Shown piece by piece: positions 17,239 to 54,028 of a stretch of 64,000 bases of DNA. How positions within the stretch are numbered: position 1 is the first letter of the stretch; each line of letters starts with the position of its first letter. The stretch lies in contig NZ_JAYRCW010000002.1 in the NCBI RefSeq assembly GCF_041909755.1, forward strand, positions 2,565 through 66,564, given 5' to 3'. Under the pieces are notes generated by a model. It searched no databases. It was not told the origin of the DNA and worked only from the letters and a program-made list of their open reading frames with translations. The position numbers were made by a program, and so were the translations under genes. Source of the stretch: Sandaracinobacter sp. (GTDB lineage: Bacteria; Pseudomonadota; Alphaproteobacteria; Sphingomonadales; Sphingomonadaceae).

Positions 17239-17293
17239 GGATGAGGACCGGAGATCCCGTACCGTCGACGAACCACTCAAGGGAGGATTCCGA

Positions 17294-23796: not shown

Positions 23797-23807
23797 GGAG
23801 GACGGAA

Positions 23808-24197: not shown

Positions 24198-24207
24198 GGA
24201 GGCCCGA

Positions 24208-25823: not shown

Positions 25824-26440
25824 AATTCTACAACTCGGTCGGGCCGAATCCGCGTGTCGTGAAGATGTTCATGGCCGAACGGGGCGTGACGATCCCCGAA
25901 GTGGAAATCGACCTGCGCGGCGGGGAGAACCGGCGCGCGCCCTATAATGTGTCGGTCAATCCGGCCGGGCAGACACCGGCGCTGGAGCTGGACGATGGCT
26001 CGGTGCTGACCGAGGTGACGGCCATCTGCGAATATCTGGACGAGGTTTCCCCCGGCCAATCCCTCATCGGGGATACGCCGGAGGCGCGCGCCATGACCCG
26101 CATGTGGACCCGCCGCATCGATCTGAAGATCTGCGAGCCGCTGACCAACGGCTTCCGCTTCGCCGAGGGGCTGCCGATGTTCACCCCCCGGATGCGCGTG
26201 CTGCCCGAGGCGGCCGCCGGGCTGAAGGCCATGGCGCAGGATGGCTACAGATGGCTCGATCCGATGATCGCCGGCCGCGCCTTCGTCGCCGGAGACCGGC
26301 TGACCCTGGCCGACGTGTTGCTGTTCGCCTTTGTCGATTTCGGCTTCCAGGTTGGCCAGCCGGTCGCCCCGGAATGCACCAATCTGCTGGGCTGGTATGA
26401 GCGCATGAAGGCTCGCCCCAGCGCCAACCCGACTGTCTGA
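25820..26440 (+). CDS. glutathione S-transferase (non-Nu class)
   Basis: 206 aa with a thioredoxin-like N-domain (NPAGQTPALELDDGSVLTEVTAICEYL) and a helical C-domain (LTLADVLLFAFVDF). Confidence 0.85.
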   Translation: MKFYNSVGPNPRVVKMFMAERGVTIPEVEIDLRGGENRRAPYNVSVNPAGQTPALELDDGSVLTEVTAICEYLDEVSPGQSLIGDTPEARAMTRMWTRRIDLKICEPLTNGFRFAEGLPMFTPRMRVLPEAAAGLKAMAQDGYRWLDPMIAGRAFVAGDRLTLADVLLFAFVDFGFQVGQPVAPECTNLLGWYERMKARPSANPTV

Positions 26441-26451
26441 GGAGGAAGATC

Positions 26452-27060
26452 ATGGCCGAGACAAACACCCAGTTCGAGTTCCGGGGCGTCAATCACCTCG
26501 CGCTCGTCTGCAAGGATATGGCGAAAACCGTCGAGTTCTACCGCGACGTGCTGGGCATGCCGCTGGTGAAGACGCTGGACCTGCCCGGCGGCAACGGCCA
26601 GCACTTCTTCTTCGATATCGGCAATGGCGACAGCCTGGCCTTCTTCTGGTTCCCCACCGCCCCAGAGGCCGTTCCGGGCATCTCCGCCCCGGAAGCGCTG
26701 CCGACGCGCGGCAACTTCATGTCGGCGCATGGATCGATGAACCACATCGCCTTCAACGTGCCGGCCGAGAAGTTCGATGAATATTACCAGCGCCTCATCG
26801 ACAAGGGCGTGGATGTCACCCAGGTGCTGAACCACGACAATTCGCCCACCCAGTCTTCGCCGGAAATGAACGACGGCGTCTATGTCCGCTCGGTCTATTT
26901 CTTCGATCCGGACGGCGTCTGCCTGGAATTCGCCGCCTGGACCCAGACCTTCGACGAAAGCGACGTGGCGCACGATCCGATGCAGGCCGATGGCACCAAG
27001 CGCCAAGGCCTGATCCTCGCGCATGCGCTGGCCCGCAATGATGCGGCGATGGCGAAATAG
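26452..27060 (+). CDS. VOC family protein (glyoxalase / extradiol dioxygenase fold)
   Basis: 202 aa with VNHLALVCKDMAKTVEFYRDVLGMPLV, NHIAFNV and YFFDPDGVCLEF. Confidence 0.8.
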   Translation: MAETNTQFEFRGVNHLALVCKDMAKTVEFYRDVLGMPLVKTLDLPGGNGQHFFFDIGNGDSLAFFWFPTAPEAVPGISAPEALPTRGNFMSAHGSMNHIAFNVPAEKFDEYYQRLIDKGVDVTQVLNHDNSPTQSSPEMNDGVYVRSVYFFDPDGVCLEFAAWTQTFDESDVAHDPMQADGTKRQGLILAHALARNDAAMAK

Positions 27061-27083: not shown

Positions 27084-28649
27084 TCAGCCGACTGCCCGGC
27101 TCTGCCCTTCCCAATAAGGCTGGCGAAGTTCGCGCCGCAGCACCTTGCCGGACGGGTTTCGCGGCAGCGCCTCGATGAAATCCACGCTCTTGGGTGCCTT
27201 GTAGCCGGCGATCCGCGCCCGCGCCCAGGCGATGATGTCCTCCCGCGCGGGGCTGTGGCCGGGGGCGGCGACGATCAGCGCCTTCACGGCCTCGCCCCAT
27301 TTCGCGTCGGGCACGCCGATCACCGCCACATCTGCGACACCGGGGCAGCCCATGATCGCGCTTTCGACTTCCGCCGGATAGACATTCTCGCCGCCGGACA
27401 CGATCATGTCCTTGATGCGGTCGTGGACGAAATAGAAGCCGTCGGCGTCGCGATAGCCGACATCGCCTGTCCGCAGCCAGCCGCTGCCGATCGCCTCTTC
27501 CGTGGCGGCGTCCCGGTTCCAGTATTTCTTCATCACCACGTCGCCGCGAATGACGATCTCCCCGATCTCGCCGTCGCCCAGCGGATTGCCGTCGGCATCG
27601 ATGATCGCCATGTCCGTGCCGGGCCAGGGCTGACCGCAGGAGGTGAGCTTGCCCGGCAGATCATGCGCGGACGGGGAGAGGTAGGAGCCGCCGCCCGTCG
27701 ATTCCGTCATGCCGTAGAATTGCACGAACTTGCAGCCAAAGGTGGCCCGCGCGCCCCGCAACACGGCTTCCGCAATCGGCGAGGCGCCATAGGCGATGGA
27801 CCTGAGCGCGGAATAATCGCCGCCCCCGGCTTCCGGCTGCTGCAACATCATCTGGATCATGGCGGGTGCGAGGAAGGCGTGGGCGACCCGTTCCGCCGCA
27901 AACAGGCGGATGGCGTCTGCGGCTGAGAAATCCTTCACCAGCACGATGCGGCTGCCCTGTGCCAGCCCCGCGAAGCTGACGTTGGTGCCCGCCACATGGA
28001 ACAAGGGCATGACGATCATCACCGTCTCGCCCTCGTCATAGGCGAAGCCGTCCACCTCGGCCGCCATCTGCAGGAAGCGGCTGTAGTTGCGGTTTTCCAG
28101 CACCACGCCCTTGGGAAGCCCGGTGGTGCCGCTGGTGTAGAGCTGGAGGACGTCATCCTCCTGCCGGGGCCGGTCGGCCGGCGGCGTCGCCGGCGCAGCG
28201 CCGATCCATTCGTTTAGCGGCTGGAATGCCGGATGCGCGCCATACAGCGCGACGAGCTGCGGCCTGTCCGCCATGCCGTCGACAGCGGCGAGCGCGGTTT
28301 CGAAGAAATCCTCGCCCACGAACAGCAGTTTCGGGGCGGCATCGCCCAGGATGAAGGCGATTTCCCGCGCCGTCAGGCGGCAGTTGATGGGGGCAAGGCA
28401 CGCCCGCGCCCGCGCCGTGCCGAAGAACAGCGGATACCAGAAATCATGGTTCTTGCTGAGCACGGATACCCTGTCGCCTGGCCGGATGCCGGATGCCGCC
28501 AGCCGGTTCGAGATCCGGTTCGAAACGGCATCAAGCTGGGCGAAACTGGTTTCCCGGTCACCGAACCTGATCGCGATATCCTGCCCGTGGCGCGCGGCAT
28601 GGGCGGCCGGAATGTCCGCCAGTGTCCGGATTGCCTCCAGATCGATCAT
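27084..28649 (-). CDS. AMP-dependent acyl-CoA synthetase/ligase
   Basis: ATG 28649 gives MIDLEAIRTLADIP. It has the AMP-binding motif LYTSGTTGLPKGVV, the hinge WLRTGDVGYRDADGFYFVHDRIKDMI and a C-terminal PRNPSGKVLRREL. Confidence 0.9.
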   Translation of the reverse strand: MIDLEAIRTLADIPAAHAARHGQDIAIRFGDRETSFAQLDAVSNRISNRLAASGIRPGDRVSVLSKNHDFWYPLFFGTARARACLAPINCRLTAREIAFILGDAAPKLLFVGEDFFETALAAVDGMADRPQLVALYGAHPAFQPLNEWIGAAPATPPADRPRQEDDVLQLYTSGTTGLPKGVVLENRNYSRFLQMAAEVDGFAYDEGETVMIVMPLFHVAGTNVSFAGLAQGSRIVLVKDFSAADAIRLFAAERVAHAFLAPAMIQMMLQQPEAGGGDYSALRSIAYGASPIAEAVLRGARATFGCKFVQFYGMTESTGGGSYLSPSAHDLPGKLTSCGQPWPGTDMAIIDADGNPLGDGEIGEIVIRGDVVMKKYWNRDAATEEAIGSGWLRTGDVGYRDADGFYFVHDRIKDMIVSGGENVYPAEVESAIMGCPGVADVAVIGVPDAKWGEAVKALIVAAPGHSPAREDIIAWARARIAGYKAPKSVDFIEALPRNPSGKVLRRELRQPYWEGQSRAVG

Positions 28650-28699
28650 CCAACTCTCTCCCCACGTCACCGAATCTGTTTCATTCTGCTTGAATTGGG

Positions 28700-28748: not shown

Positions 28749-29795
28749 TTGCGCGGCCATCCTATCCTGCCGACGACCATCGTGGGAAGCTATCCCCAGC
28801 CGGACTGGCTGATCGACCGGGAGCGGCTGAAGGCCAGCCTGCCGCCGCGCGTGCGCGCCGAAACGCTGTGGCGGATTCCGGAGCCGTGGCTGGCCGACGC
28901 GCAGGAAGCCGCCACGCTGATGGCGATCCGCGACCAGGAAGAACTCGGCATCGACATCGTCGGCGACGGCGAGATGCGGCGGGAAAGCTATTCCAACCGG
29001 CTGGCGACCGCCCTTTCCGGCATCGATACCGAAAAGCACGGCACCGCCATCGACCGCACGGGGAAGGCGAACCCGGTGCCGCTCGTTTCGGGCCCGATCC
29101 GGCGGTTGGGCCCCATCGAGGCGCAGGATGCGGCCTTCCTGCGGCGGCACACCACGAAGCCGGTGAAGCTGACGCTGCCCGGCCCCTTCACCATGACGCA
29201 GCAGGCCGAAAATGGATTCTACCCGGACGCCCGCGCGCTGGCGATGGACTATGCCGATGCGGTCAATGCCGAAGTCCGCGACCTGTTCGCAGCCGGCGTC
29301 GACGTGGTGCAGCTGGACGAACCCTATCTGCAGGCCCGTGCGGCCGAAGCGAACGCCTATGCCATCGAAGCGATCAACCGTTCGCTCGACGGGGTGGAGG
29401 GCACGACCGCGCTGCACATCTGCTTCGGCTACGCGATGGTGCATGGCGCGCATGTCGCAAAACCCAAGGCCTATGATTTCCTCGCCGAACTCGATGCCTC
29501 GGTGGTGGATGTGATCTCCATCGAGGCGGCGCAGCCGGGGCTGGATCCCGCCATCCTCGAAGACCTGCCGAACAAGATCATCATGTATGGCGTGCTGGAT
29601 CTCTCCACGCCCGAGGTGGAGACACCGGAAACGGTGGCGGCGCGCATCCGGCAGGCGCTGCGGCATGTCGATGCCGAACGGCTGTGGATCGCGCCCGACT
29701 GCGGGATGAAATATCACAGCCGCGAACAGTCGCAGGCGAAGCTGAGGGCAATGGTGCAGGGGACGGAACTCGTCCGCGCCGAACTGAAGTCCTAG
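28749..29795 (+). CDS. cobalamin-independent methionine synthase (MetE C-terminal domain)-like protein
   Basis: The homologous region starts at ...GHPILPTTIVGSYPQPDWL. It also has VGDGEMRRESY, LHICFGY and WIAPDCGM. There is no in-frame ATG here. TTG at 28749 lies 8 nt after GAAGGGA. The upstream part of track ORF 28233.. overlaps the ligase gene. Confidence 0.72.
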   Translation: MRGHPILPTTIVGSYPQPDWLIDRERLKASLPPRVRAETLWRIPEPWLADAQEAATLMAIRDQEELGIDIVGDGEMRRESYSNRLATALSGIDTEKHGTAIDRTGKANPVPLVSGPIRRLGPIEAQDAAFLRRHTTKPVKLTLPGPFTMTQQAENGFYPDARALAMDYADAVNAEVRDLFAAGVDVVQLDEPYLQARAAEANAYAIEAINRSLDGVEGTTALHICFGYAMVHGAHVAKPKAYDFLAELDASVVDVISIEAAQPGLDPAILEDLPNKIIMYGVLDLSTPEVETPETVAARIRQALRHVDAERLWIAPDCGMKYHSREQSQAKLRAMVQGTELVRAELKS

Positions 29796-29804: not shown

Positions 29805-30497
29805 CTAGCCGTCGAGGAACGCCGCCAGCATCGGAACGACGATTTCGGGCGCTTCGATCGTGGGCAGATGCCCGGCCCCCGCAATCGTCTCCAGGCGGGC
29901 GCCGGGGATCGCGGCCAGCATCTCCTGCTGCTGCGCGTCTGTCGTGATGCCGTCACCCGCGCCGCGCAGCAGCAGCGTGGGAACCTTGATGTCCTTCAGC
30001 GCCGGGCGACTGTCCGCCCGGGCCATGATCGCGCGCTGCTGGCGCAGGAAGGTCTCAGCGCCGGTGTCGGCGGCCATCTGCCGCGCGATGCCCAGAAACC
30101 GCTCGTCGCTGCGCCGATGCTCCGGGAAAAGGATCGGAATGCGTTCCTCCACCACCTGATCGAAGCGGCCCGATTCCACCAGGTCGATATAGCCCTGCCG
30201 CCGCGCCGTCTGGGCAGGCCCGTCCGCCGAGGCGAGGGTGGCGATGAGGACGAGCCTGCGGACGCGGCCGGGGGCGCGGCGCATCACTTCGAAGGCGACA
30301 AAACCGCCCATGGCATGGGCGATCAGATCAAACTCCGGCGGGGCGGCGGCGAGCAGCCAGTCAGCGAAACCGGCAATGCTGTCGTCGTGCCGATTGTCGG
30401 CAAGGATGATGTCGCGCCCGGGCCAGGCATCGATCAGCGGCTGCCAGACGGCGTCGGTGAGAAGCTGGCCGGTGATGAGAACGACGGGACAGGACAT
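29805..30497 (-). CDS. alpha/beta-hydrolase-fold protein with Ala in place of the nucleophile Ser
   Basis: 230 aa. The nucleophile elbow reads LIAHAMGGF rather than GHSMGG. Asp (GAGDGIT) and His (GAGHLP) positions are retained. Last gene of the six-gene operon. Confidence 0.8.
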   Translation of the reverse strand: MSCPVVLITGQLLTDAVWQPLIDAWPGRDIILADNRHDDSIAGFADWLLAAAPPEFDLIAHAMGGFVAFEVMRRAPGRVRRLVLIATLASADGPAQTARRQGYIDLVESGRFDQVVEERIPILFPEHRRSDERFLGIARQMAADTGAETFLRQQRAIMARADSRPALKDIKVPTLLLRGAGDGITTDAQQQEMLAAIPGARLETIAGAGHLPTIEAPEIVVPMLAAFLDG

Positions 30498-31417
30498 TAG
30501 ACCACCTGATGCAAAAGGGGTTCCGCGCCGAACAGGCGACGGCAGTTTTCATGGGCGACGGTCAGGCTCCGCACCAGCGTTTCCGGCGTCAGCCAGGCGA
30601 TGTGCGGCGCCAGTACGACATTGGGCAGGGAGAGGAGCGGACTTTCGGCCGGCAGCGGCTCCTGCGCAAAGACGTCCAGCCCCGCCCCGCGCAGATGCCC
30701 TTCGGACAGCGCCTGCACGAGCTTCGCTTCGTCCACCAGTTCCCCGCGCGCCGTGTTCACCAGCACGGCGCCACGCTTCATCGCCAGCGGGTCGATCCGC
30801 CCGCGCGTCTCGTCGGTGAGCGGAATATGGAGGGAAAGGATGTCGGATTCCGCGCTCAGCTTCTCCTGCGGCCAATATTCGTAAGGCACGTCGCGCGAAG
30901 TGCGCGCGGTGTAGGCAACGCGCGCACCCAGCGCCGCCAGCGCCGGGGCGAGCCGCCCGGCGGAATGGCCGAATCCGACGAGGCCGACAGTTCGGCCCCC
31001 GATCTCGCCGACGCTGTCCAGTTCGGACGGATCCGCGGTCCAGCCCTCCCCTGCCCTTGTGCGCCGGTCGAAGAAGGGCGTGCGGCGCAGCACCGCCAGC
31101 ATCAGCGACAGCGCCATCTCGGCAACCGCCTGGCTGTTGGTGCCGGGCATGTTGCAGACCGCCACGCCATGCTCGCGCGCGGCATCCAGCGCGATGGTGT
31201 TGACGCCCACGCCCAGCTTCTGGATCAGCTTCAGCTTCGGCGCGGCGGCAATCACCTCCCGCGTGACCGGCGTGAGGACATGGAGCAGCGCCGTCATCTC
31301 CGGCGCGACTTCGTCGAGCGGGGCGGCCTCATCGACATGGACGACGACCCCGGCGCCGAAGATGCGATCGACGGCGGCGCGAAATCCAGGGCTGGGTCGG
31401 GCGTGGAGGACGATCAT
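30497..31417 (-). CDS. D-isomer-specific 2-hydroxyacid dehydrogenase
   Basis: ATG 31417 forms an ATGA overlap with the enolase stop. 306 aa with VGLVGFGHSAGRLA (NAD site), NTARGELVDE, LDVFAQEP and PHIAW. Confidence 0.9.
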   Translation of the reverse strand: MIVLHARPSPGFRAAVDRIFGAGVVVHVDEAAPLDEVAPEMTALLHVLTPVTREVIAAAPKLKLIQKLGVGVNTIALDAAREHGVAVCNMPGTNSQAVAEMALSLMLAVLRRTPFFDRRTRAGEGWTADPSELDSVGEIGGRTVGLVGFGHSAGRLAPALAALGARVAYTARTSRDVPYEYWPQEKLSAESDILSLHIPLTDETRGRIDPLAMKRGAVLVNTARGELVDEAKLVQALSEGHLRGAGLDVFAQEPLPAESPLLSLPNVVLAPHIAWLTPETLVRSLTVAHENCRRLFGAEPLLHQVV

Positions 31418-32703
31418 GCCAGAGCCTGCGCCACCGGCGCGAAGAATGCCGACGCCCCGGCGAACTCGGCGTCGGCGCCCATGGCTTCCTCGATCCGCAG
31501 CACCTCGTTCCATTTCGCCATCCGCTCGGACCGGGTGAAACTGCCCACCTTCAGCTGCCCGGCGTTCCAGCCGGTCGCCAGATGGGCGATGGTGACATCC
31601 TCCGTCTCCCCGGAGCGGGCGGACACCAGCGCGCCCCAGCCATGCGCGACGGCGGCGTCCAGCGCGGCCTTTGCTTCGGTCACGGTGCCGACCTGGTTCA
31701 CCTTGATGAGGGCGGCGTTGCAGACTCCGGCCTTCGCCGCCGCCTCCACCCGCGCGGCGTTCGTCACCAGCACATCGTCGCCGATCAGCTGCACATGGCT
31801 GCCGATGGCCGCATTCACCGCCGCCATCGTCTTCCAGTCGTCCTGGCCCGCCGGGTCCTCGATGGACAGGATCGGGTAGCGCTTCGTCCATTCGATCATA
31901 CGTGCGGCCATGTCCGCGCCAGACAGGCGGCGCCCATCCAGCGCCAGCCGGTAGCCGCTTTCGTCGCCCAGTTCGTTGGCGGCGATGTCGAGCGAGATGA
32001 ACACATCCCTATGGCCGCTCGCCTCGATGGCGCGGGTCAGCGTTTCCAGCGCATCCTCGTTCGAGGCGAAATTGGGCCACCAGCCGCCTTCGTCCGCCAC
32101 GCCCGAAAGCGGCCCTTTTTCCTCCATCAACCGGCCGGCCGCCCGGAACACATCGTGGGTTATTTCCATCGCCCGACGGAACGAACCGGCCTTCGGGCAC
32201 ATCACCATGAAATCCTGCACGTCGGTGCGGCGGCCGGCATGCGCGCCGCCGCCGAAAATCTGGATTTCCGGCAGCGGGATTCGAACCTTGCGGCCCTGGG
32301 CCAGCCAGCGCCACAGCGGCTCGCGCGCATCGGCCGCAGCGGCGTGCAGCACCGCCATCGACACGGCGACCACGGCATTCGCCCCAAGCCGCGCCTTGTT
32401 GGGCGTGCCATCCAGATCGCAGAGCGCCCGGTCCACCGCCGCCTGCTCACGCGCATCCATGCCGGCGATGGCGGGGGCGATTTCGGCAGCGATCCCGGCG
32501 ACGGCCCGGTCGACGCCAAACCCGCCGAAGGCCGCGCCGCCGTCGCGCAGGTCGATCGCCTCATGGGCCCCTCTCGACGCGCCGGCCGGGGCGATGGCGC
32601 GGCCCACCGCACCCGAGTCCAGCCGGACTTCGGCTTCCACCGTGGGGCGGCCCCGCGAATCCCAGAGGCGGCGGCCCGTCACCGTGGCGATGCGTGCGGT
32701 CAT
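31414..32703 (-). CDS. enolase-family protein (divergent paralog)
   Basis: ATG 32703 forms an ATGA overlap with the kinase stop. 429 aa with DSRGRPTVEAEV, GASRGAHEAIDLRD, FGGGAHAG, VADEGGW, SIEDP, GDDVLVTN, IKVNQVGTVTE and SARSGETED. Confidence 0.9.
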   Translation of the reverse strand: MTARIATVTGRRLWDSRGRPTVEAEVRLDSGAVGRAIAPAGASRGAHEAIDLRDGGAAFGGFGVDRAVAGIAAEIAPAIAGMDAREQAAVDRALCDLDGTPNKARLGANAVVAVSMAVLHAAAADAREPLWRWLAQGRKVRIPLPEIQIFGGGAHAGRRTDVQDFMVMCPKAGSFRRAMEITHDVFRAAGRLMEEKGPLSGVADEGGWWPNFASNEDALETLTRAIEASGHRDVFISLDIAANELGDESGYRLALDGRRLSGADMAARMIEWTKRYPILSIEDPAGQDDWKTMAAVNAAIGSHVQLIGDDVLVTNAARVEAAAKAGVCNAALIKVNQVGTVTEAKAALDAAVAHGWGALVSARSGETEDVTIAHLATGWNAGQLKVGSFTRSERMAKWNEVLRIEEAMGADAEFAGASAFFAPVAQALA

Positions 32704-33668
32704 TCCAGTCCTTTCCAGTCCGCGACCAGCCGGTCGAGGGACGCAGGGCGGCGCAGCAGCGCCCGCGCCTGTCCGCGCACGCAGTCCCGGTGCGCAGGGT
32801 CGATGAGATAGGGCGCGGGGGATTTTCCCTCCACGCGGGCGAGAAGTAGGGCGGCGGTCAATGGGCCTGCGCGTTCGAGAACAGCGTCCGGCGCTTCCCA
32901 GTCGACCCGGCCCGCATAGGCTGCAACCAGCGCTTCGGCCGCAGGCCGCACGCCGCCCAGCCACACATGCTTCAGCAGCAGGTGCGTGGTGCAAAAGGCG
33001 AGGTCGAAGGCCGGATCGCCAAAGACCGCGCATTCGGCATCCAGAAACACCGGCCCGTCCGCATGGACGAGGATGTTCTTGGGGCTGACATCGCCATGCA
33101 CCAGCGCGACCTTGCGGGCCGTCAGATCGTCGGCAATCGCATGAAGGACCGGGGCAAGTTCGGCGTCGGCACGGGCGACATGCAGGATGAACGGATCGAC
33201 CCGCAGGGCGCGGAACATCTCGTCGGTCGGAAAGGCCGCGCGGTCCGCGTCGCTGAAGGCCGTCGCCGAATGGAGGGCGGCAATGCGCAGGCCCACGGCA
33301 GCGGCGAATCCGGGCGCCCCATGCCCAGCCACAAGCTCGTCCTTCCAGACCGGCGCATCGGGCAGGAAGCGCAGCACGAAGCCGTGGCCGGGCAGTTCGG
33401 CCAGCACCTCGGGTGCCATGCGGGGATCCACTTCGCGCGCCCGGCGCAGCCAGCGCACCTCGCTGGCGCCGCGCTCCACAGGCGCGCGCCAGTCCGCCGC
33501 GACGCGCAGCTTCGCCAATGGCCGCTTCACCACCACCGGCCCCTCAGCTGTCTCCAGCTTCCACACATCGCAGGAAACGCCGCCCGCCAACGGCACCAGC
33601 CGGGGCTCTTCCGCGCCGATCAGGCCGGCGCGGCGCAAACCCTCCACGATGCCGGCATCGGCCAGCAT
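32700..33668 (-). CDS. phosphotransferase-family kinase (APH/choline-kinase fold)
   Basis: 322 aa with nucleotide-lysine segment PVVVKRP, catalytic loop LVHGDVSPKNILV and metal loop LDAECAVFGDPAFDLAF. Confidence 0.8.
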   Translation of the reverse strand: MLADAGIVEGLRRAGLIGAEEPRLVPLAGGVSCDVWKLETAEGPVVVKRPLAKLRVAADWRAPVERGASEVRWLRRAREVDPRMAPEVLAELPGHGFVLRFLPDAPVWKDELVAGHGAPGFAAAVGLRIAALHSATAFSDADRAAFPTDEMFRALRVDPFILHVARADAELAPVLHAIADDLTARKVALVHGDVSPKNILVHADGPVFLDAECAVFGDPAFDLAFCTTHLLLKHVWLGGVRPAAEALVAAYAGRVDWEAPDAVLERAGPLTAALLLARVEGKSPAPYLIDPAHRDCVRGQARALLRRPASLDRLVADWKGLE

Positions 33669-34795
33669 TACAGTTTCGACCGGATCCAGCTGCCCACGAG
33701 ATCGGCGGCATCCTGTCGTTCGGCCAGGCTGTCCTCGAAATAGTGCGCGCCCGGAATCAGCTCCAGCCGCTTGTCGGCGCTGCCCAGGAAATCGAAGATC
33801 TTGCGGGCATCACTGGGGAAGACGCCCGTATCCGCCAGCCCCTGCACCACCAGCGCGGGGGTGTCGTGCTTCGCCAGATGCGGCGCGCCCTGGCAAGGCG
33901 ATGTCTCAAGGCTCCACATGTTCAGCCAGGTCCGGATCATGTTGGCGCGGCCGATGCTGGGGGTGCGGTTGGCGATCTTCGGATCGCCGCGATAGCACCA
34001 GTTCGGCTTGCGGTCCGACGGATCGATGGACGGATCCACGCAGCGGACATCGCCCCAGCAGCGGAACATAGGGAACAGCCGGTCGGGCACCCCGGCCGCA
34101 TTCAGCCGCGCCAGTTCCGCCTTCGCCCAATCGGTGATGCGCTGGTTCCGCGCGCGCTGGGCGGCACGATATTTCGCGATGAAGGCGTCCGAATAGGGCG
34201 GTCCGTTGTCGGGGTTGAAGGGATCCAGCTCCGGATCGGTCGCCACCGGATCATTCTCGTCGATCACCGAGGCGTCCATCCAGTCGGTCAGCACCTCCGG
34301 CCGCCCCTGGTGCGCGTTGAAGGAAATGTAGAGATCGCCCTTGATGAGCTGTGCCAGCGCATCCTGCCCCGCGCTTGGCAGACGGTCCGACAGGGTGGGC
34401 GATATGGCCTCGGCCTGATAGGCCCCCATCAGGGAACCGCCGCCGGAATTGCCAAGGATGACGATCCGCTCGACCCCGGCCTCCTCCTTCAGCCAGCGCA
34501 TCCCCACGCCGATGTCAAGCACGGCATGTTCCAGCAGGAACTGGTCCTCCACCCCGCGATAGCGGGTGTTCCAGCCCAGAAAGCCGAACCCCTGACGGGC
34601 AAAATAGGGCGCGATATAATGTTCGGAAAAATCGACATTATAGTGGGTGGCGATGATCGCCACTTTCGGCCGCGTGCCCGATTTCGTCCAGTAGATCCCC
34701 TGGCACGGATGCCCGCCCGCCATGATGCGCGGCATGGTGGGCGATACCCGGCCAATGAATTGCGCGTCCAGCCCTTCGATCCCGTTCGGATCCAT
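33668..34795 (-). CDS. alpha/beta hydrolase (intact GNSGGG nucleophile elbow)
   Basis: ATG 34795 gives MDPNGIEGLD... 375 aa with IVILGNSGGGSLM (G-x-S-x-G). The upstream part of track ORF 33668..35131 overlaps the ligase gene. Confidence 0.72.
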   Translation of the reverse strand: MDPNGIEGLDAQFIGRVSPTMPRIMAGGHPCQGIYWTKSGTRPKVAIIATHYNVDFSEHYIAPYFARQGFGFLGWNTRYRGVEDQFLLEHAVLDIGVGMRWLKEEAGVERIVILGNSGGGSLMGAYQAEAISPTLSDRLPSAGQDALAQLIKGDLYISFNAHQGRPEVLTDWMDASVIDENDPVATDPELDPFNPDNGPPYSDAFIAKYRAAQRARNQRITDWAKAELARLNAAGVPDRLFPMFRCWGDVRCVDPSIDPSDRKPNWCYRGDPKIANRTPSIGRANMIRTWLNMWSLETSPCQGAPHLAKHDTPALVVQGLADTGVFPSDARKIFDFLGSADKRLELIPGAHYFEDSLAERQDAADLVGSWIRSKL

Positions 34796-34821
34796 CCCAC
34801 TCTCCCCGTGATTGCGTCTGT

Positions 34822-36456
34822 TCAGCGTGCGGCTTCGAAGGGCAGCCGATAGCCCGTCAGCCCGGCGCGGATGGCACGCTTGTCGATCTTGCCCGTCGGC
34901 CCCAGCGGGATCTCGTCGACGAACAGCACATCGTCCGGCATCCACCAGCGGGCAATCCTGTCCGTCAGATAGGCTTTCAGCCCCTCGGCATCGGCGCTGG
35001 CGCCGGGCTTCAGCTGGCACAGCAGGATCGGCCGTTCGTCCCATTTCGGGTGGGCGACGCCAACGACCGCGGCCAGCGCGACGGCGGGGTGGCCCGTGGC
35101 GATATTCTCGATTTCGATCGAACTGATCCACTCGCCGCCGGACTTCACCACATCCTTGGCGCGATCGGTGATCTGCATATAGCCCTCGGCGTCAAGGGTA
35201 GAGACGTCGCCGGTATCGAAAAAGCCTTCCGCGTCCAGCACATCGCCCGCTTCGCCGCCGAAATAGGCCGACGCGATCGTCTCCCCGCGGATCATCAGCC
35301 GGCCCGGCGTCTTCCCGTCGTGCGGCAGACGCCTGCCTTCGTCGTCCACCAGCTTCAGGTCCAGCCCGCACAGCAACCGGCCCTGTTTCAGCTTGTAGGC
35401 GATCTGCTCGTCCGCAGGCTTTGCCGCAACGCTGGCGTTCGGCACCGAAACGGTCGCCAGCGGCGAGGTTTCCGTCATCCCCCAGCCCTGGATCACGTCC
35501 ACGCCATAGTCATCCCGGAAGGCGCGGATGATCGATTCCGGGCAGGCCGACCCACCGATCGTCACCCGTTCCAGCGTGGAAAATCTGTGGCCGCCATCGC
35601 GCATGTGCTGCAACAGCATCTGCCACACGGTGGGCACGGCGGCGGAATAGGTGACGCCTTCCTGCTCGATGAGATTGTAGATGGATTCACCATCCATCCG
35701 CTGCCCCGGCATCACCAGCTTTGCGCCGACCGCGGGCGCCGAATAGACGACGCCCCAGGCATTGGCATGGTACATCGGCACCACCAGCAGCACGGAATCG
35801 CGCGCGCAAAGCCCCAGCGCATCGCGTTGCAGCGTCATCAGCGCGTGGATGCTGTTAGACCGGTGCGAATAGAGGACGCCCTTCGGATTCCCCGTGGTGC
35901 CCGAGGTATAGCAAAGGCCGCAGGCGGTCCGCTCGTCAAAGCCGCCCCAGCGATACTCGGCCGGGTATCCGGCGATCCAGTCATCGAAGGCGGTCGCCGG
36001 ATAGGGCGTTTCCGGCAACGAGGCGCGGTCGCAGAAGAAGATCACCCGCTCGATCGAGGGCACCTGCGGCAGCAGTTGCGCGACAAGATCGGCGCAGGCC
36101 GGGTCGGCGATCAGCAGCCGGTCTCCGGCGTGGTTGGCGATATAGGCGATCTGCTCCAGATAGAGGCGCGGGTTCAGCGTATGCAGCACGGCCCCCATGC
36201 CGCAGGCGCCATACCAGGCGGCGAGGTGCCGGGCGCTGTTCCAGGCGAGCGTCGCCACCCGGTCCCCCAGCCGGATGCCGGCATCGGACAGGGCGTTCGA
36301 AACCCGCTTCGCGTCGGCATGCACCGCCGCATAGCTGGAGCGGGTGACCCGCCCCTCCGCATCGCGCGAAACCAGCTCCCGCGTGCCGTGCCACGCGGCG
36401 GCATGGTCCAGAATCCGGTCCACCGTCAGCGGCACATCCTGCATCAAACCCAGCAT
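34822..36456 (-). CDS. long/medium-chain fatty-acid--CoA ligase-like adenylating enzyme
   Basis: ATG 36456 gives [16 protein letters not shown], a typical N-terminus for this family. It has [54 protein letters not shown] and [11 protein letters not shown]. Confidence 0.9.
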
Positions 36457-36507
36457 GGCGGTGCTCTCTCCCCCCGGTTGCAGCCTTCCGGCCATTATGG
36501 AAAAAGA

Positions 36508-36519
36508 TAGTATCCTAAG
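36508..36519 (+). promoter_or_regulatory. TAG-N4-CTAAG upstream motif, copy E (TAGTATCCTAAG)
   Basis: Intergenic between the ligase operon and the divergent MarR gene, ending 75 nt before the GTG start at 36594. Confidence 0.35.
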
Positions 36520-36593
36520 GAAATTGCCCTGACAACGCCGGCAAGGCGTCGCACGGGCTTGCGCCGCGCCACTGCTGCATCTAGCCCGTTCAG

Positions 36594-37022
36594 GTGCGTT
36601 CCGATCAGCTCATAATAGCCCTTTTCCAGCGTTTCTGCTGGATGGACGAGGGATTGCAGGCCGCCCTGCATGCGAAAGGCTGGCCGGATGTGAACCGGCC
36701 GCAGTCGATGGTGATGACGAATGTCGTCAGCGGCATCGTCCGCCCGTCCGAGATCGCCCGCAACCTCGGCATCTCGCGGCAGGCGATCCACAGCACGCTG
36801 GCGCAGATGGTGAAGCTGGGGATGATCGAGCTGGATGTCGATCCGCTTGATCGGCGCCACCATGTGGTGTCCCTCACGGAAAAGGGCGCCCGCATGCGCC
36901 AGGATGCCCAGCTCGCGATGGATGCACTGTCCGCGCAGATCGCCGGCGCGCTGGGGCCGGACCGATATGCCGCCATGATCGCCGGGCTTGAGGCCGACTG
37001 GGGCGAGAATATCCCCCGCTAG
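36594..37022 (+). CDS. MarR-family transcriptional regulator
   Basis: 142 aa with a GTG start. Winged-helix segment PSEIARNLGISRQAIHSTLAQMVKLGMIELDVDPLDRRHHVVSLTEKG. Confidence 0.75.
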   Translation: MRSDQLIIALFQRFCWMDEGLQAALHAKGWPDVNRPQSMVMTNVVSGIVRPSEIARNLGISRQAIHSTLAQMVKLGMIELDVDPLDRRHHVVSLTEKGARMRQDAQLAMDALSAQIAGALGPDRYAAMIAGLEADWGENIPR

Positions 37023-37594
37023 GCGGACAGCGCCGCCGCCACCTTCACCAGCCGCGCCGCCGTCATCTCCACCAGCGAGGCCGGCAGCGCCTCTTTCAGC
37101 GCGCCCGCCTCGTTGAAGGCGGAATGGGCGTTGGGCACCATCACCTGCTCCGGAATCACCAGCATCTGCACCGTCGTCAGGATCTGCCGCAGGTGCATCA
37201 GCCCGCGCAGCCCACCGAACGGGCTGATCGAGGCGGACATGATCGCCGCCACCTTGCCGCGATAGGCCGTCAGCGCGACGAGGCTTTCCGAACCGGTCGG
37301 GCGCGACGCCCAGTCGATGGCGTTCTTCAGCAGCGGCGACACGGACCCATTATATTCCGGGGACGCGATCAGCAGCCCATCCTGCGCGACCAGCAATTCT
37401 TTCAGCCGCAGCGCGTCGGCCGGGAAGGCATTTGCTTCCAGCGCAAGCGAATAGATCGGCAGGTCGAACGCGCCCAGGTCGATCTCGGTGACCTCCGCGC
37501 CATGCCCCCTGAGCGCCCGGGCCGACAGCGCCGCCAGCATCCCGTTGAACGATCCTTCGCGGGTGCTGCCCGCGATCACGGCAATGCGCGGCAC
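37019..37594 (-). CDS. NAD(P)H-dependent FMN reductase
   Basis: 191 aa with MPRIAVIAGSTREGSFN, a flavodoxin-like P-loop for FMN, and SPEYNGS. Confidence 0.85.
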   Translation of the reverse strand: MPRIAVIAGSTREGSFNGMLAALSARALRGHGAEVTEIDLGAFDLPIYSLALEANAFPADALRLKELLVAQDGLLIASPEYNGSVSPLLKNAIDWASRPTGSESLVALTAYRGKVAAIMSASISPFGGLRGLMHLRQILTTVQMLVIPEQVMVPNAHSAFNEAGALKEALPASLVEMTAARLVKVAAALSA

Positions 37595-37598
37595 CGGA

Positions 37599-38111
37599 TC
37601 AGGCCCTCACGTCGGACAGGAATTTCAGCTTCGCCGTCTCGTCGGCCAGATTGGCGATCACCCGGCGCAACAGGCTCTGGAGGACATCGACTTCCTCGTC
37701 CGTCATGCCGCGCGTCGCGATCTCATGCACCTCGGCGTTCATCGGCGCCAGGATCAGCTCCAGCTTGCGGGCGTGCGGCGTCAGGTAGATGAAGGTCTTG
37801 CGGCGATCCTCGGTCGATTTCTTGCGGATGATGAAGCCGGATTTTTCCAGCCCGTTCAGCGCAACCACGGTCGTCGGTTCGCGCATGCCCACCCGCTCGC
37901 TCAGCTCGCGCTGGGTGATGCCGTCCTGCCGCCAGAGCTGGCGCAGGAACCGCCACTGCCCGGCAGAGACATCCTGCGTCAGCGTCCCCTGCTCCAGCAG
38001 GCGCGAAAACGACCGGAAGACGACGCGAGCGAGATAGCCGATGCTGTTCTCGGGATTTGTGTAGAACTCCGGCGGATGCCGAAACCGCTTCTCCGAACCA
38101 GCCAACGCCAA
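37599..38111 (-). CDS. MarR-family transcriptional regulator
   Basis: 170 aa. TTG start 7 nt after AAGGAGGGGG. It reads GITQRELSERVGMREPTTVVALNGLEKSGFIIRKKSTEDRRKTFIYLT. Sits 4 nt upstream of the FMN reductase gene. Confidence 0.82.
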   Translation of the reverse strand: MALAGSEKRFRHPPEFYTNPENSIGYLARVVFRSFSRLLEQGTLTQDVSAGQWRFLRQLWRQDGITQRELSERVGMREPTTVVALNGLEKSGFIIRKKSTEDRRKTFIYLTPHARKLELILAPMNAEVHEIATRGMTDEEVDVLQSLLRRVIANLADETAKLKFLSDVRA

Positions 38112-38248: not shown

Positions 38249-40327
38249 TCAGCCGAAGGTGCGCTTCAGCGTCAGCGACATGGTGATATGCTCCTGCCGG
38301 GTCCGGAACGCGTGCAGGAAGGGCTCGGGGTTCGACCGATCGGGCGAGAAGAAGGTGCGCTCGCGGTAGAATTTCACGTCCAACAGGTTTTCCGCCCGCA
38401 GCGTCAGCGTGGTGCGCGGATCGGGCCGGAATTCCGCAAACGCTTCCACGAAGGGGTTCTGCCGGAAGTTCCGGTCCTCCTCGTTGCGGCGGAACTGGGT
38501 CGATCCGGGGTTGGAATAGCTGTCCACGCCCCAGGCGAAGCGGCCCAGATCCTGTCGGAACCCCGCATCCAGCAGCCACAGCGTATAGCCGCTGAAATGC
38601 CGGTCCTTCAGCGTGTAGGGATCCTGCACCTCGGTATCGACAAGCGAAAAGCGCATCGTCGCGCGGCCGCCGGGGATGCCCAGCCGTTCCAGCGGCACAT
38701 CCAGGTTCAGCCGCGCAATGCGCATGCGGCCCGAACCCAGGTTTCCGGGTGCGTCCAGCCCGCCTTCCACGGGCACGCGATCCTGAACCTGCTGCACGAA
38801 GTTCATGCCCAGTTCGCCCCGGATCACGCCCGATCCCAGGATGGGCCGTTCCGCCGTCAGCAGGAATTCCCAGGCGGTCTGCGGCACCAGATCGGCATTG
38901 CCGCCGTTCACCCGGTCGTTCGTCAGTTCGGCTAGGCTGATGAAATCACCGAAGTTCAGCTGGTTGACGGTCCGTTCCGCCTTCGCCTGCAGCTGCCAGC
39001 GCCCGGTCCGCCAATCGAGGCTCGCCTTGGGCTTCAGATAGGACAGCGTGCGTTCAGCCGTCGCGTCGCCGCTGACGGTCAGGCGGGATCGTTCGAAGGT
39101 CAGCCCGAAATCGACGCGCAGGCCGTTCGCCAGCTTCCGCCCCATGTTCACGAAGGGCTCAACCCGGATCTCGCGGACGACTGCATTGGCCAGCGGAAGG
39201 TCGATCGGCGTCTGCCCGCCGTCCGCCCCGATCTCATACAGGTCAACCTCGCTGTCGAGCCGGTTCATCACCGCCTCCCCGCCCAGCTCGACCGACCAGC
39301 CGCTGGTTGACGGCAACGACCAGACGAGCCGCGCCACGCTTTCCGCTTCCTTCAGGTGCTGCAGCTGGGAAATCCCGCCCAGGATCTGGCCGGACGCCTG
39401 GTTCAGCACCAGCTCCTCCCGGTCGCGATCGGTGCGGGTGGCCAGCAGGATCAGCTTGATGGCCCCGTCGCCCAGCGGGCGCGTCACGTCGCCGCCCAGC
39501 TCGAACTGGCGGCCACGATAGTCCTGCTCCAGCACATCGTCGCGCACCTGCCCGCCCACGGGCGTCACATGGTTGGTCTGCCACAGCTGGAAGCGGCCGA
39601 TGGCGAAGCGGCCGTTCAGATTGGCCTTCCGGTCTGTTCCGCCATCGTGCGACCATCCGAACGAGACATTCGCTTCCGGATCATGGGTGGCGTTGTGCTT
39701 GTCGCGCACCTCCACCAATTCCCCGCCGGGCAGCGTCGTCAGCACGTCGCGGCCGTAATCGGTGATCTCGTCATTGTTGTAGTCCAGCGCGACATTGAAG
39801 CTGGACCGGCCCCGCTTCAGCAGCGCCGATGCCTGCCCGTCCGCCCGGATCCTGCCTTCGAACGGCCGCCGCAGCCTCAGCTGGGCCGTGCCGGCGACGC
39901 CGGCATCCTCCGTCAGCACCAGGTTCAGCACCTGCGGGCGGCCCGCAAACTCCGCCCCGAAGCCATCGCCGGGCCCCACTTCCACCCGCAGCACCCGCGC
40001 TGCCGGGATCCTGCCCAGAATCGTCTCCAGGTCATCGCTCTTCGTGCTGGGGCGTTCCCCGTTGATCACCACATTGCCGGCCGCCTGCCCGAAGCCGCGC
40101 ACATCCTGGTCGATATCTTCCAGCTGAAATCCCGGCACCCGCTGCACCAGCTGCAGCGCCGTCGCGGGCGCGAAGGTCGTGAAGAAGGCGGCCTGATAAA
40201 CGGTGCGCGCGCCCACCCGTTCCTGGGCATGGCCAGCGGCGGGAAACAGGGCGCAGGCCAGCAGGGCCAACACCGGGCGGCCGACAAGGTTCGACATCTG
40301 AAGAAACATCCCCCCGAAATGGGTCAT
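38249..40327 (-). CDS. TonB-dependent outer-membrane receptor
   Basis: 692 aa at the maximal ORF. Alternative ATGs at 40309 and 40297 both keep the signal peptide ...LVGRPVLALLACALFPAAGHAQ. The plug segment reads VQRVPGFQLEDIDQDVRGFGQAAGNVVINGERP. Confidence 0.85.
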   Translation of the reverse strand: MTHFGGMFLQMSNLVGRPVLALLACALFPAAGHAQERVGARTVYQAAFFTTFAPATALQLVQRVPGFQLEDIDQDVRGFGQAAGNVVINGERPSTKSDDLETILGRIPAARVLRVEVGPGDGFGAEFAGRPQVLNLVLTEDAGVAGTAQLRLRRPFEGRIRADGQASALLKRGRSSFNVALDYNNDEITDYGRDVLTTLPGGELVEVRDKHNATHDPEANVSFGWSHDGGTDRKANLNGRFAIGRFQLWQTNHVTPVGGQVRDDVLEQDYRGRQFELGGDVTRPLGDGAIKLILLATRTDRDREELVLNQASGQILGGISQLQHLKEAESVARLVWSLPSTSGWSVELGGEAVMNRLDSEVDLYEIGADGGQTPIDLPLANAVVREIRVEPFVNMGRKLANGLRVDFGLTFERSRLTVSGDATAERTLSYLKPKASLDWRTGRWQLQAKAERTVNQLNFGDFISLAELTNDRVNGGNADLVPQTAWEFLLTAERPILGSGVIRGELGMNFVQQVQDRVPVEGGLDAPGNLGSGRMRIARLNLDVPLERLGIPGGRATMRFSLVDTEVQDPYTLKDRHFSGYTLWLLDAGFRQDLGRFAWGVDSYSNPGSTQFRRNEEDRNFRQNPFVEAFAEFRPDPRTTLTLRAENLLDVKFYRERTFFSPDRSNPEPFLHAFRTRQEHITMSLTLKRTFG

Positions 40328-40539
40328 TCTGGTTGTGGCGGCCGTTCAACCTGCATTCGCGGGCAGGGGCAACGGCTGTTCGATGAACGCCGTTCGTCGG
40401 AAACAGATGGGGACTGCGACGTTTGTCGCACTGAAATCGGGCCGCAATGAAACGGTCTGAATAGTGTCTTCCAACAGCCTCCGTGCCGAAACAGTCGGGC
40501 GCTAGCGGCCCATCACTCACTCGAAAAGGGGCTCGCAAG

Positions 40540-47594: not shown

Positions 47595-47611
47595 GGATAC
47601 AATGGCCGCGG

Positions 47612-54017: not shown

Positions 54018-54028
54018 CGCCTCTCTCC

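Follow-up and report, generated by a model that had tools for sequence, protein, structure and literature searches.

As far as we know, all enzymes of the enolase subgroup are regarded as having the same function, and annotation pipelines name each of them 'phosphopyruvate hydratase / glycolytic process'. Here, we analyze an enolase paralog that is encoded in a six-gene operon of Sandaracinobacter sp. (Alphaproteobacteria, Sphingomonadales) and that most likely represents a new subfamily paired with a kinase resembling 5-methylthioribose (MTR) kinase (MtnK). The operon lies in a stretch of 64,000 nucleotides (RefSeq assembly GCF_041909755.1, contig NZ_JAYRCW010000002.1, positions 2,565 to 66,564 of the forward strand), which we refer to as the window. 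Its genes encode, in this order, an acyl-CoA ligase (ligase1), an alpha/beta-hydrolase (hyd1), the APH-fold kinase, the enolase paralog, a 2-hydroxyacid dehydrogenase (DH), and a second alpha/beta-fold protein (hyd2), and a MarR-family gene (MarRa) is divergently oriented upstream. Compared with glycolytic enolase (EC 4.2.1.11), the paralog has the same two-domain fold, an identity of about 46%, and the same metal, base, acid, and phosphate residues, but it differs by the exchanges E168D, H373A, S36A, and others (residue numbers such as E168D and H373A follow yeast enolase), and its neighbors are kinase genes instead of glycolytic or housekeeping genes.

Several described systems share parts of this arrangement. 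The serine-cycle or glycerate segment, which consists of hydroxypyruvate reductase, glycerate 2-kinase, enolase, and phosphoenolpyruvate (PEP) carboxylase, has the same order of enzyme types, an analogy that the sequence-only reading of the window had already drawn, and a PEP carboxylase gene (ppc) is found in one plasmid version of the cassette; however, the cassette kinase is APH/MtnK-like, the pocket of the enolase around the C3 hydroxyl group is altered, and there are no sga, mtk, or mcl genes. Glycerate kinases are known in class I (GlxK/GarK), class II (MOFRL), and class III (GLYK), and the folds of these classes are unlike the APH/MtnK fold. MtnK itself (TIGR01767; PDB entries 2pyw and 2pun) is the nearest solved relative of the operon kinase, and the HGDxxxxN loop and the DxE motif are common to both, but the operon kinase has no mtnA/mtnB partner and possesses its own set of invariant Arg and Lys residues. 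In LvaA and in the kinase domains of ACAD10 and ACAD11, an APH-family kinase activates a hydroxyl group before an elimination, and a CoA ligase and a reductase are present in our operon as well; here, however, the partner is an enolase and not an acyl-CoA dehydrogenase (ACAD), and the conservation of the kinase does not extend to the ligase.

In the non-phosphorylative diketo-hydrolase branch of L-fucose and L-rhamnose degradation, a short-chain dehydrogenase (SDR), a lactonase, a dehydratase, a 4-dehydrogenase, and an FAH-family hydrolase generate pyruvate and L-lactate. Clusters of Burkholderia pseudomallei and Paracoccus that contain the kinase and the enolase carry most of these enzymes, with the Paracoccus cluster lacking the lactonase and the classical dehydratase. 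By pathway logic, a 6-hydroxy hexonate would give glycerate and not lactate in such a branch, and the kinase and the enolase would be extra steps. A precedent for an analog of 2-phosphoglycerate (2-PG) as enolase substrate is the PhpH-type homolog of phosphinothricin tripeptide biosynthesis, which reportedly forms carboxyphosphonoenolpyruvate. The change in PhpH concerns the phosphoryl group and the gene belongs to a phosphonate cluster, whereas the phosphate site is unchanged in the paralog described here, and phosphonate genes are absent. Full-text literature searches gave no description of a kinase–enolase module, in agreement with an earlier sequence-only reading of the window, which had not recognized the combination as a described pathway. 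In databases, the two genes are labeled 'phosphopyruvate hydratase' and 'aminoglycoside phosphotransferase family protein'.

The catalytic pocket of the enolase paralog

The window enolase scores 155 bits with PF03952, 283 bits with PF00113, and 457.8 bits with TIGR01060 (cut-off 300). In an alignment with the Chloroflexus enolase 4yws, QDFMVM stands in place of the canonical QEFMI, and SARSGETED in place of the canonical SHRSGETED. The window protein thus has D168 and A373, as do all 61–62 enolases that are linked to the kinase, whereas five canonical PDB enolases all have E168 and H373. The sequence-only reading had not noted these two exchanges. The remaining machinery is unchanged: the metal ligands D246, E295, and D320, the base K345, the acid E211, K396, the phosphate site R374/S375, the loop residue S39, and H159 are kept in the window protein and in 60–62 of the 62 linked homologs, the exceptions being alignment gaps.

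Using the five PDB enolases, which come from four phyla, as the canonical reference, we also defined sites that are specific for the kinase-linked clade. About ten further changes are located beside catalytic residues and are invariant or nearly invariant in the clade, among them S36A and the exchange of a Tyr to Trp. Clade-specific are also an Asn-to-Gln and an Asn-to-Gly exchange in the strand and loop preceding H159, a Gly-to-Ala exchange directly before D-E211, an Ala-to-Trp exchange after E211-G-G, and a Thr-to-Val exchange after K396. In loop 2, an Arg (Arg159, within HAGRR) occurs in 59 of 61 clade members, at a position where canonical enzymes have Asn, Ser, or Pro. The mean identity is 62% inside the clade, even across phyla, but only 46% to canonical enolases, while the five canonical enzymes share 63% among themselves, and a neighbor-joining tree recovered the kinase-linked enolases as monophyletic.

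The comparison was extended to the order to which the window belongs, with the Zymomonas mobilis enolase as probe. This search returned 120 canonical Sphingomonadales enolases, none of which came from Sphingopyxis or Sandaracinobacteroides. The 115 full-length canonical sequences are 42–46% identical to the window protein, and all 115 have E, H, S, N, N, G, A, T, and Y at the sites described above. By these identities and by its place in the separate clade of the neighbor-joining tree, the window enolase is not the Sphingomonadales housekeeping ortholog.

In the enolase of M. tuberculosis, Glu163 and Glu204, which correspond to E168 and E211, act on water or the C3 hydroxyl group (PMC10619443). 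As the equivalent of E168 has this role, the E168D and H373A exchanges can be placed on the leaving-group side of the active site, and they leave the carboxylate, metal, phosphate, and base side unaffected. Since the two exchanges are at residues that contact the C3 hydroxyl group or the attacking water, the true substrate may not be 2-phosphoglycerate.

The kinase and its linkage to the enolase

In 61 diverse homologs of the operon kinase, the ATP-binding residue K48 as well as G192-D193, N198, and D210-x-E212 are invariant, and H191 is found in at least 90%. R66, R156, K233, R278, and Y287 are likewise invariant, and the Arg and Lys residues of this set would fit an anionic substrate. The sole sequence match in the PDB was the A. 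thaliana MTR kinase 2pyw, with which residues 166–236 align. The protein is nevertheless not an MtnK by the TIGR01767 equivalog model (40.6 bits, cut-off 275), and it is about 60–95 residues shorter than the solved MtnK chains. A Foldseek search with an AlphaFold2 model of the kinase, which was poor (pLDDT 62) and based on a shallow alignment, had MtnK structures as its top ten matches, followed by PsiK and macrolide phosphotransferases; given the model quality, this ranking is only corroborative. The view that the kinase fold is outside of the known glycerate kinase classes, which had been put forward in the sequence-only reading, is borne out by Pfam, where only APH-type matches were obtained, and by MtnK being the nearest relative.

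When 1.84 billion representative proteins were searched with HMMER, 454 clusters (50% identity) of the kinase family were detected at E ≤ 1e-30. An alignment of 61 diverse kinases then served as the query against one genome per species and gave 80 loci, which belong to Alpha-, Beta-, and Gammaproteobacteria, Acidobacteriota (Vicinamibacterales and Bryobacterales), Actinomycetota (Streptomyces and other Actinomycetes), and a metagenome-assembled genome (MAG) of the Chloroflexota. Linkage was counted in the 70 loci that had at least 1.4 kb of sequence 3' of the kinase. In 58 of these (83%), the gene directly 3' of the kinase in the same orientation encodes an enolase, and in three additional loci an enolase gene is present within a few kb of the kinase. 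A 2-Hacid_dh gene adjoins the pair in 27 of the 58 loci. Genes in the loci were called with our own codon log-odds heuristic, which was compared with public calls for one locus, and after clustering of the products no other family occurred in more than 16 loci. In three loci that have no 2-Hacid_dh gene, one of the Chloroflexota and two of the Burkholderiales, a gene of the PanE/ApbA ketopantoate reductase family is located directly 5' on the same strand, which fits a non-homologous replacement for the step from a 2-oxo acid to a D-2-hydroxy acid.

Some database proteins, among P0178, P0241, P0192, P0200, and P0265, were called as fusions of the kinase with Enolase_N/C. These may be true fusions, or they may result from read-through of ATGA-type overlaps in metagenome gene calls. 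The representative library also contained one fusion of UxuA (mannonate dehydratase) with the kinase and one of a MobA-like NTP-transferase with the kinase. A Pfam census of 109 operon mates revealed no dominant family that could serve as a common feeder enzyme or transporter, with SDR being the most frequent (5 of 109). The genes directly 5' of the cassette vary by lineage and include FAH, HMGL-like, and isocitrate lyase/PEP-mutase family genes, families that have C–C-cleaving members, and this variation suggests that what reaches the cassette is a common small acid fragment. In at least five lineages, the pair has FAH-family genes at its flanks. In a Rhodospirillales MAG (L013, 980–7011), genes for a TRAP transporter (DctPQM) and a PEP-mutase/isocitrate lyase family protein are found directly 5' of the kinase and the enolase.

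The sequence-only reading had argued that an enolase between a small-molecule kinase and a 2-hydroxyacid dehydrogenase is not in a glycolytic context, and this now extends well beyond the window, as the kinase–enolase pair recurs across phyla, often with a 2-oxoacid reductase. In our best explanation, which as a whole has about an even chance of being correct, an ancient cassette of two or three genes, for a 2-oxoacid reductase, an MtnK-like kinase, and the enolase paralog, was extended in a lineage-specific manner to give the operon.

Kinase–enolase modules are also carried by plasmids and chromids. A tblastn search of PLSDB with the kinase resulted in 30 records. On plasmids of Rhodococcus opacus PD630 and R. 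pseudokoreensis, the gene order is FAH, CtBP-like 2-Hacid_dh, eno, kinase, FAH, and 3-hydroxybutyryl-CoA dehydrogenase, with cupin and DoxX genes upstream on the opposite strand and genes for an NAD(P)H oxidoreductase and a Zn-dependent alcohol dehydrogenase (Zn-ADH) downstream. A Rhizobium indicum plasmid has LysR, ppc, DH, and kinase genes, and on the opposite strand FMN_red, ADH, SBP, VOC, eno, and cupin genes; the DH position is held by CtBP-like 2-Hacid_dh genes in both the Rhodococcus and the Rhizobium versions. On the conjugative plasmid of B. pseudomallei, there are, in this order, SDR, uxuA, GntR, uxuA, SDR, SMP-30 lactonase, FAH, kinase, eno, sugar ABC transporter, hypothetical protein, and RraA genes, and a Paracoccus seriniphilus plasmid has the order LacI, kinase, eno, FAH, SDR, SDR, and sugar ABC transporter. 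A Methylobacterium nodulans plasmid has the order eno, kinase. By tblastn location, kinase and eno are on p1 of Azospirillum brasilense Sp7, and DH and kinase are on p1 of Cupriavidus necator, where FMN_red and eno are about 6 kb away.

The enolases of the Rhodococcus, Rhizobium, B. pseudomallei, Paracoccus, and Methylobacterium plasmids all have D168 and A373. Those of Rhodococcus and Methylobacterium are a second group, which is more divergent (42–44% identity) and has the gene order reversed. All of these plasmid-borne enolases carry the automatic label 'phosphopyruvate hydratase / glycolytic process'. That they are carried by accessory replicons argues for extra and not housekeeping copies. 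A more distant pair is found on an Enterobacter chuandaensis plasmid (L086, 6253–8978), where a kinase of 35% identity is divergently oriented to a 'hypothetical protein' that is enolase-like (34% identity) and has D168 and G373. This pair heads a putative small-molecule biosynthetic cluster with genes for a U32 peptidase, an aminotransferase, an iron redox enzyme, an M14 peptidase, an MFS transporter, and a nucleotidyltransferase.

The gene content of the B. pseudomallei plasmid predicts a route from a sugar via lactone, aldonate, 2-keto-3-deoxy acid, and 2,4-diketo acid to pyruvate and glycerate. As this predicted route ends at glycerate, a glycerate kinase step and an enolase step would remain for the pair. 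Together with the ppc gene that precedes DH and kinase in Rhizobium, the B. pseudomallei cluster fits a route from a glycerate-like acid to PEP.

The proposed route and its alternatives

The best-supported reading, which generalizes the scheme of the sequence-only reading and to which we would give an even chance of being correct, is that the core enzymes reduce a 2-oxo acid, phosphorylate the product, and catalyze an enolase-type elimination. In this route, the 2-Hacid_dh enzyme would convert a 2-oxo-3-hydroxy acid, such as hydroxypyruvate or a close homolog, to a D-2-hydroxy acid resembling D-glycerate, and the APH-fold kinase would phosphorylate its 2-hydroxyl group. The enolase paralog would then take the proton at C2 and expel the C3 substituent, using Lys345/Glu211, two Mg2+ ions, and the Arg374/Ser375 phosphate site, and the product, PEP or a C3-substituted phosphoenol acid, would enter central metabolism. 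In the genome of the window, the putative esterase hyd1 and ligase1 would probably release and split a precursor, perhaps an ester, so that the acyl part would be transferred to CoA and the hydroxy acid part would enter the cassette, and MarR would control the expression of the operon. The substrate, the phosphorylation site, all chemical steps, and the roles of ligase1, hyd1, and hyd2 are inferred. The reading is based on the kinase–enolase linkage with its reductase partners, including the non-homologous replacement, on the full conservation of the machinery for a 2-phospho-carboxylate, for metal binding, and for acid/base catalysis, and on the genomic contexts in which ppc adjoins the module (Rhizobium plasmid) or glycerate is predicted (B. 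pseudomallei).

We consider two variants of this route to have about equal weight. In one, the pair is a true glycerate/2-PG system, with the enolase being an isozyme that possibly has an altered inhibitor sensitivity, and in the other, it acts on a C3-modified substrate. For the latter variant, we tentatively propose, at rather less than even probability, that the E168D/H373A clade would be the first enzyme of the enolase subgroup with a natural substrate other than 2-phospho-D-glycerate, that its obligate partner would define a new class of 2-hydroxyacid kinases of the MtnK-like type, and that the cassette would make PEP or an analog thereof. The substrate could be a 2-phospho acid that is modified at C3, carries another leaving group, or has a longer chain.

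Several observations weigh against a simple reduction–phosphorylation–elimination sequence. E168D and H373A alter exactly the residues that hold the C3 hydroxyl group or the attacking water, and they are accompanied by the roughly ten other clade-invariant changes beside catalytic residues and by the new Arg in loop 2. If the intermediate were plain 2-PG, the housekeeping enolase would suffice. The closest relatives of the kinase, MtnK, NahK, and PsiK, phosphorylate anomeric hydroxyl groups of sugars or phenolic hydroxyl groups and not 2-hydroxy acids. In addition, most neighborhoods of the cassette are heterogeneous, and the 109 operon mates of the census provide no shared transporter or feeder enzyme.

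In one rival explanation, the kinase–enolase logic would be the same but the leaving group at C3 would not be a hydroxyl group. An example would be the conversion of (R)-3-sulfolactate via 2-phospho-3-sulfolactate to PEP and sulfite, the reverse of the ComA reaction, and phosphate or a thiol could also be the leaving group. The altered E168/H373 pocket and the loop-2 Arg would fit a different and possibly anionic group, as the only substitutions in the catalytic site are at leaving-group-contacting residues and Arg159 is present in nearly the whole clade where canonical enzymes have N, S, or P. A D-specific 2-hydroxyacid dehydrogenase would furthermore yield the required (R)-2-hydroxy acid, and PEP as a product agrees with the adjacency of ppc. 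We nevertheless regard this idea as unlikely, as the operon mates include no recurrent sulfite exporter, sulfite oxidase, sulfonate transporter, or similar marker, the sugar-acid contexts point to glycerate, and literature searches gave no precedent. Similarly unlikely in our view is that an aldonate or tetronate, as a longer sugar acid, or, as with MtnK, a sugar is the substrate of the kinase, and that the enolase dehydrates the resulting 2-phospho-aldonate, which would give a phosphoenol acid substituted at C3. The pair would then take the place of the usual sugar-acid dehydratases in a phosphorylative manner. Room for a chain of four or more carbons could come from the smaller side chains at 168 and 373, but A209W and other bulky replacements of the clade may occupy the space that was gained. 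The nearest kinase relatives in sequence and fold are indeed sugar kinases, there are the UxuA–kinase and NTP-transferase–kinase fusions, and the Paracoccus plasmid cluster combines dehydrogenases, FAH, and sugar transporters without a classical dehydratase; most cassettes, however, lie beside unrelated genes without sugar genes, and the DH and PanE partners indicate that the precursor is a 2-oxo acid.

Two further explanations were considered. In analogy to the lva and ACAD10 systems, ligase1 could form an acyl-CoA, DH a hydroxyacyl-CoA, and the kinase could phosphorylate the latter for subsequent elimination of phosphate, with the enolase being a bystander or having another role. The kinase domains of LvaA and ACAD10/11 are reported to be of the APH family and to act on 4-hydroxyacyl-CoA (PMC10802472, PMC11342911). 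A CoA ligase and a reductase are encoded in the operon of the window, and genes for ACAD and 3-hydroxyacyl-CoA dehydrogenases are near the module on the Rhizobium and Rhodococcus plasmids. This explanation is highly improbable, since the ligase is missing from nearly all kinase loci while the enolase is present in 83%, the operon has no ACAD gene, the enolase retains a complete 2-phospho-carboxylate site, and the PDB sequence search with the kinase returned MtnK and no match of the ACAD10/11 type. Finally, the clustering could be fortuitous and the enolase a housekeeping glycolytic enzyme, as the protein does pass the cut-off of the TIGR01060 'eno' equivalog. We attach almost no probability to this possibility, because enolase and kinase are linked in at least six phyla or proteobacterial classes, the D168/A373 signature is invariant, the clade is monophyletic and only 42–46% identical to 115 canonical Sphingomonadales enolases that all have E and H, and members are carried on accessory plasmids, including the conjugative plasmid of B. 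pseudomallei.

Other candidate pathways were dismissed. Methionine salvage was rejected, as mtnA and mtnB are absent and neither an isomerase nor a class II aldolase-type dehydratase is among the Pfam assignments of the window neighbors and of the sampled loci. DMSP/MMPA catabolism was rejected as ligase1 is below the DmdB cut-off and there are no dmdC or dmdD genes. Elimination of phosphate from 2-phospho-D-malate was set aside because the geminal phosphate–carboxylate site is fully conserved, and an itatartarate/hydroxyparaconate route, to which the locus of Candidatus Sphingomonas colombiensis had drawn attention, was set aside as speculation.

A deep enolase clade with two replaced pocket residues that is coupled to a kinase of this fold points either to a fourth class of glycerate kinases, if the kinase is a glycerate kinase, which has an enolase isozyme of its own, or to an enolase-type reaction that is new. 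In both cases, a widespread annotation would be corrected, and products of sugar-acid, ester, or CoA-dependent catabolism would gain a further way into PEP. If the natural substrate is indeed not 2-PG, an ancient and widespread cassette would tie a metabolite that is not currently linked to central metabolism to PEP or a PEP analog. For enzymologists, the clade would be a natural experiment that shows what Glu168 and His373 contribute.

The six-gene operon and its surroundings

The six genes form a real operon (Table 1). All six open reading frames (ORFs) were located on the minus strand between 36456 and 29805, where the sequence-only reading had placed them, and its account of the gene junctions agreed throughout when these were re-read on the reverse complement. 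Its family assignments were upheld by Pfam and NCBIfam profile matches, and its divergent MarR gene was confirmed. The TGA of ligase1 is followed by 26 nt with GGGGAGAG and then by the ATG of hyd1. The hyd1/kinase and DH/hyd2 junctions are TAATG overlaps, and the kinase/enolase and enolase/DH junctions are ATGA overlaps. No promoter-like or terminator-like sites were found within the operon on the minus strand. For ligase1, the start at 36456, and not that of a longer ORF at 36495, agrees with 544-residue orthologs and with the full-length NCBIfam match. The G+C content of the window is about 67%.

Table 1. Features of the operon and of its surroundings (window positions).
Feature	Position	Strand	Matches and remarks
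ligase1, acyl-CoA ligase, operon gene 1	34822..36456	−	PF00501 + PF13193
hyd1, capped alpha/beta-hydrolase (probable)	33668..34795	−	weak alpha/beta-hydrolase matches; conserved triad
APH-fold small-molecule kinase, core gene 1	32700..33668	−	PF01636, 60 bits
Divergent enolase paralog, core gene 2	31414..32703	−	Enolase_N + Enolase_C, TIGR01060
DH, D-isomer-specific 2-hydroxyacid dehydrogenase, core gene 3	30497..31417	−	PF02826 + PF00389
hyd2, alpha/beta-fold protein without nucleophile Ser, last operon gene	29805..30497	−	PF12697 + PF00561
MarRa, divergent MarR-family regulator	36594..37022	+	PF12802, 33.8 bits (cut-off 27)
Sigma-70-like promoter candidate 5' of ligase1	36507..36535	−	TTGTCA-17-TACTAT, 9/12 matches; consensus match only
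FMN_red-type NAD(P)H oxidoreductase	37019–37594	−	Pfam
MarRb, second MarR	37599–38111	−	Pfam
Short MetE-like (Meth_synt_2) gene, convergent with operon end	28749..29795	+	PF01717, 138 bits
ligase2, second acyl-CoA ligase, divergent from MetE-like gene	27084..28670	−	PF00501 + PF13193; NF004837, 515 bits (cut-off 476)
Seven-gene block: MFS, SDR, SnoaL, CMD, SMP-30/gluconolactonase, GST, VOC/glyoxalase	21611–27060	+	
692-residue ORF	38249–40327	−	
TonB-dependent receptor gene	40483–43140	+	
TonB-dependent receptor gene	17234–19537	+	
Transglutaminase-like; circularly permuted ATP-grasp + Alpha-E; DUF2126 (putative amidoligase) + transglutaminase genes	44230–51142	−	
Cytochrome bd oxidase subunits I + II and two CydDC-like ABC-transporter genes	52869–58845	− (oxidase)	ABC-transporter genes divergent from oxidase genes
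tRNA gene	15040–15113	+	only Rfam match of the window

The remaining operon proteins were analyzed for their likely functions. Ligase1 passed the cut-off of NF004674/PRK06018 (835 bits, cut-off 766), whereas its score with the equivalog model NF005426 of the 3-(methylthio)propionyl-CoA ligase DmdB was below the cut-off (718.7 bits, cut-off 822). In hyd1, the catalytic triad is conserved, with the Ser in the elbow GNSGGGS, the Asp in ADTG, and the His in GAHYF, and a Foldseek search with its AlphaFold2 model (pLDDT 80) had monoacylglycerol lipases (Rv0183 and human MGL), YcjY, and cinnamoyl/feruloyl esterases as top matches, which indicates that hyd1 is probably a capped carboxylesterase. Hyd2, which has a weak similarity to PcaD, contains HAMGG in place of the GxSxG elbow, so that the nucleophilic Ser is exchanged to Ala, while the Asp and His are retained. 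This Ala is present in nine of ten aligned orthologs, with a Gly in one locus (L015), and the Candidatus Sphingomonas colombiensis protein reads AHALGG; a non-hydrolytic role of hyd2 is therefore likely. DH matches PF02826 with 161 bits and PF00389 with 80.5 bits, and the translation contains the GxGxxG, NTARG, and PHIA motifs. The presence of both domains and of these motifs is consistent with an active enzyme. Its best NCBIfam scores were with 3-phosphoglycerate dehydrogenase (PGDH; 180 bits, cut-off 454) and glyoxylate reductase (179.6 bits, cut-off 455), and PdxB gave 92 bits (cut-off 434), so that none of these cut-offs was passed, and its best NCBIfam and PDB matches were SerA-type PGDH and glyoxylate/hydroxypyruvate reductases.

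As to whether the operon structure recurs in any relative, a point on which the sequence-only reading had made its case depend, the operon is conserved in Sandaracinobacteroides hominis, which is the nearest named relative (kinase 85% identical), in Sphingopyxis, and in a Sphingomonas. The gene order is kept in S. hominis, in five Sphingopyxis genomes or MAGs, and in Candidatus Sphingomonas colombiensis, with protein identities of 53–95%; four of the Sphingopyxis-type genomes or MAGs come from a tblastn map. As the order is kept in these Sphingomonadales, the arrangement is not due to chance. S. hominis and Sphingopyxis granuli share the order MarRb, FMN_red, MarRa, ligase1-hyd1-kinase-enolase-DH-hyd2, MetE-like, ligase2, and VOC-GST-(SGL)-CMD-SnoaL-(SDR)-MFS, with the SGL and SDR genes of S. 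hominis being absent from the S. granuli block. Candidatus Sphingomonas colombiensis (L093, CP119315.1) retains hyd1-kinase-enolase-DH-hyd2 with 1-nt overlaps, but an HMGL-like lyase gene and an FAH-family gene stand in place of ligase1, and genes for a family III CoA-transferase (CoA_transf_3) and a LeuCD-like aconitase pair are located beside two MarR genes. The same LeuCD-like aconitase pair is encoded in S. granuli (L001).

MarRa is syntenic in all Sphingomonadales versions. Ligase1 and hyd2 occur together with the kinase only in Sphingomonadales, in Caulobacterales, and in one MAG labeled Rhizobium, with ligase1 orthologs beside the kinase being limited to Sphingopyxis, S. hominis, and a single Caulobacterales MAG, and hyd1 is directly 5' of the kinase also in Caulobacterales (L009) and in one Actinomycetes MAG (L059). 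The sequence-only reading had included CoA-ligase and hydrolase steps as feeders of the pathway, and this part did not hold for the conserved core, to which these genes do not belong; they are additions seen in Sphingomonadales and Caulobacterales.

On the MarR side of the operon, the MarRb and FMN_red pair is syntenic in Sphingopyxis, S. hominis, and Candidatus Sphingomonas colombiensis and may be in the same regulon as the operon. An FMN_red homolog is also near the module on the Rhizobium and Cupriavidus plasmids, and on the Rhodococcus plasmids, a nearby gene has the annotation NAD(P)H-dependent oxidoreductase. Other frequent neighbors of the module are cupin, VOC, Zn-ADH, or DoxX genes. 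At the other end of the operon, the MetE-like gene, whose start is ambiguous (TTG at 28749 or GTG at 28782), is syntenic in Sphingomonadales and Caulobacterales (L023 and L052), and ligase2 is syntenic with the operon in S. hominis and Sphingopyxis. The seven-gene block that follows, which has the flavor of electrophile detoxification or lactone catabolism, travels with the operon in Sphingopyxis and S. hominis, and in part in Phenylobacterium L023 and L030 (Caulobacterales).

Farther away in the window, the 692-residue ORF had no Pfam match at 1e-5. An Rfam scan of the window and seven diverse kinase loci detected tRNAs only and no riboswitch. In S. granuli, a Plug/TonB receptor gene is located on the same side of the MarR genes as in the window, albeit at a position that is not equivalent. 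The G+C content has a peak of 0.74 at 56–58 kb.

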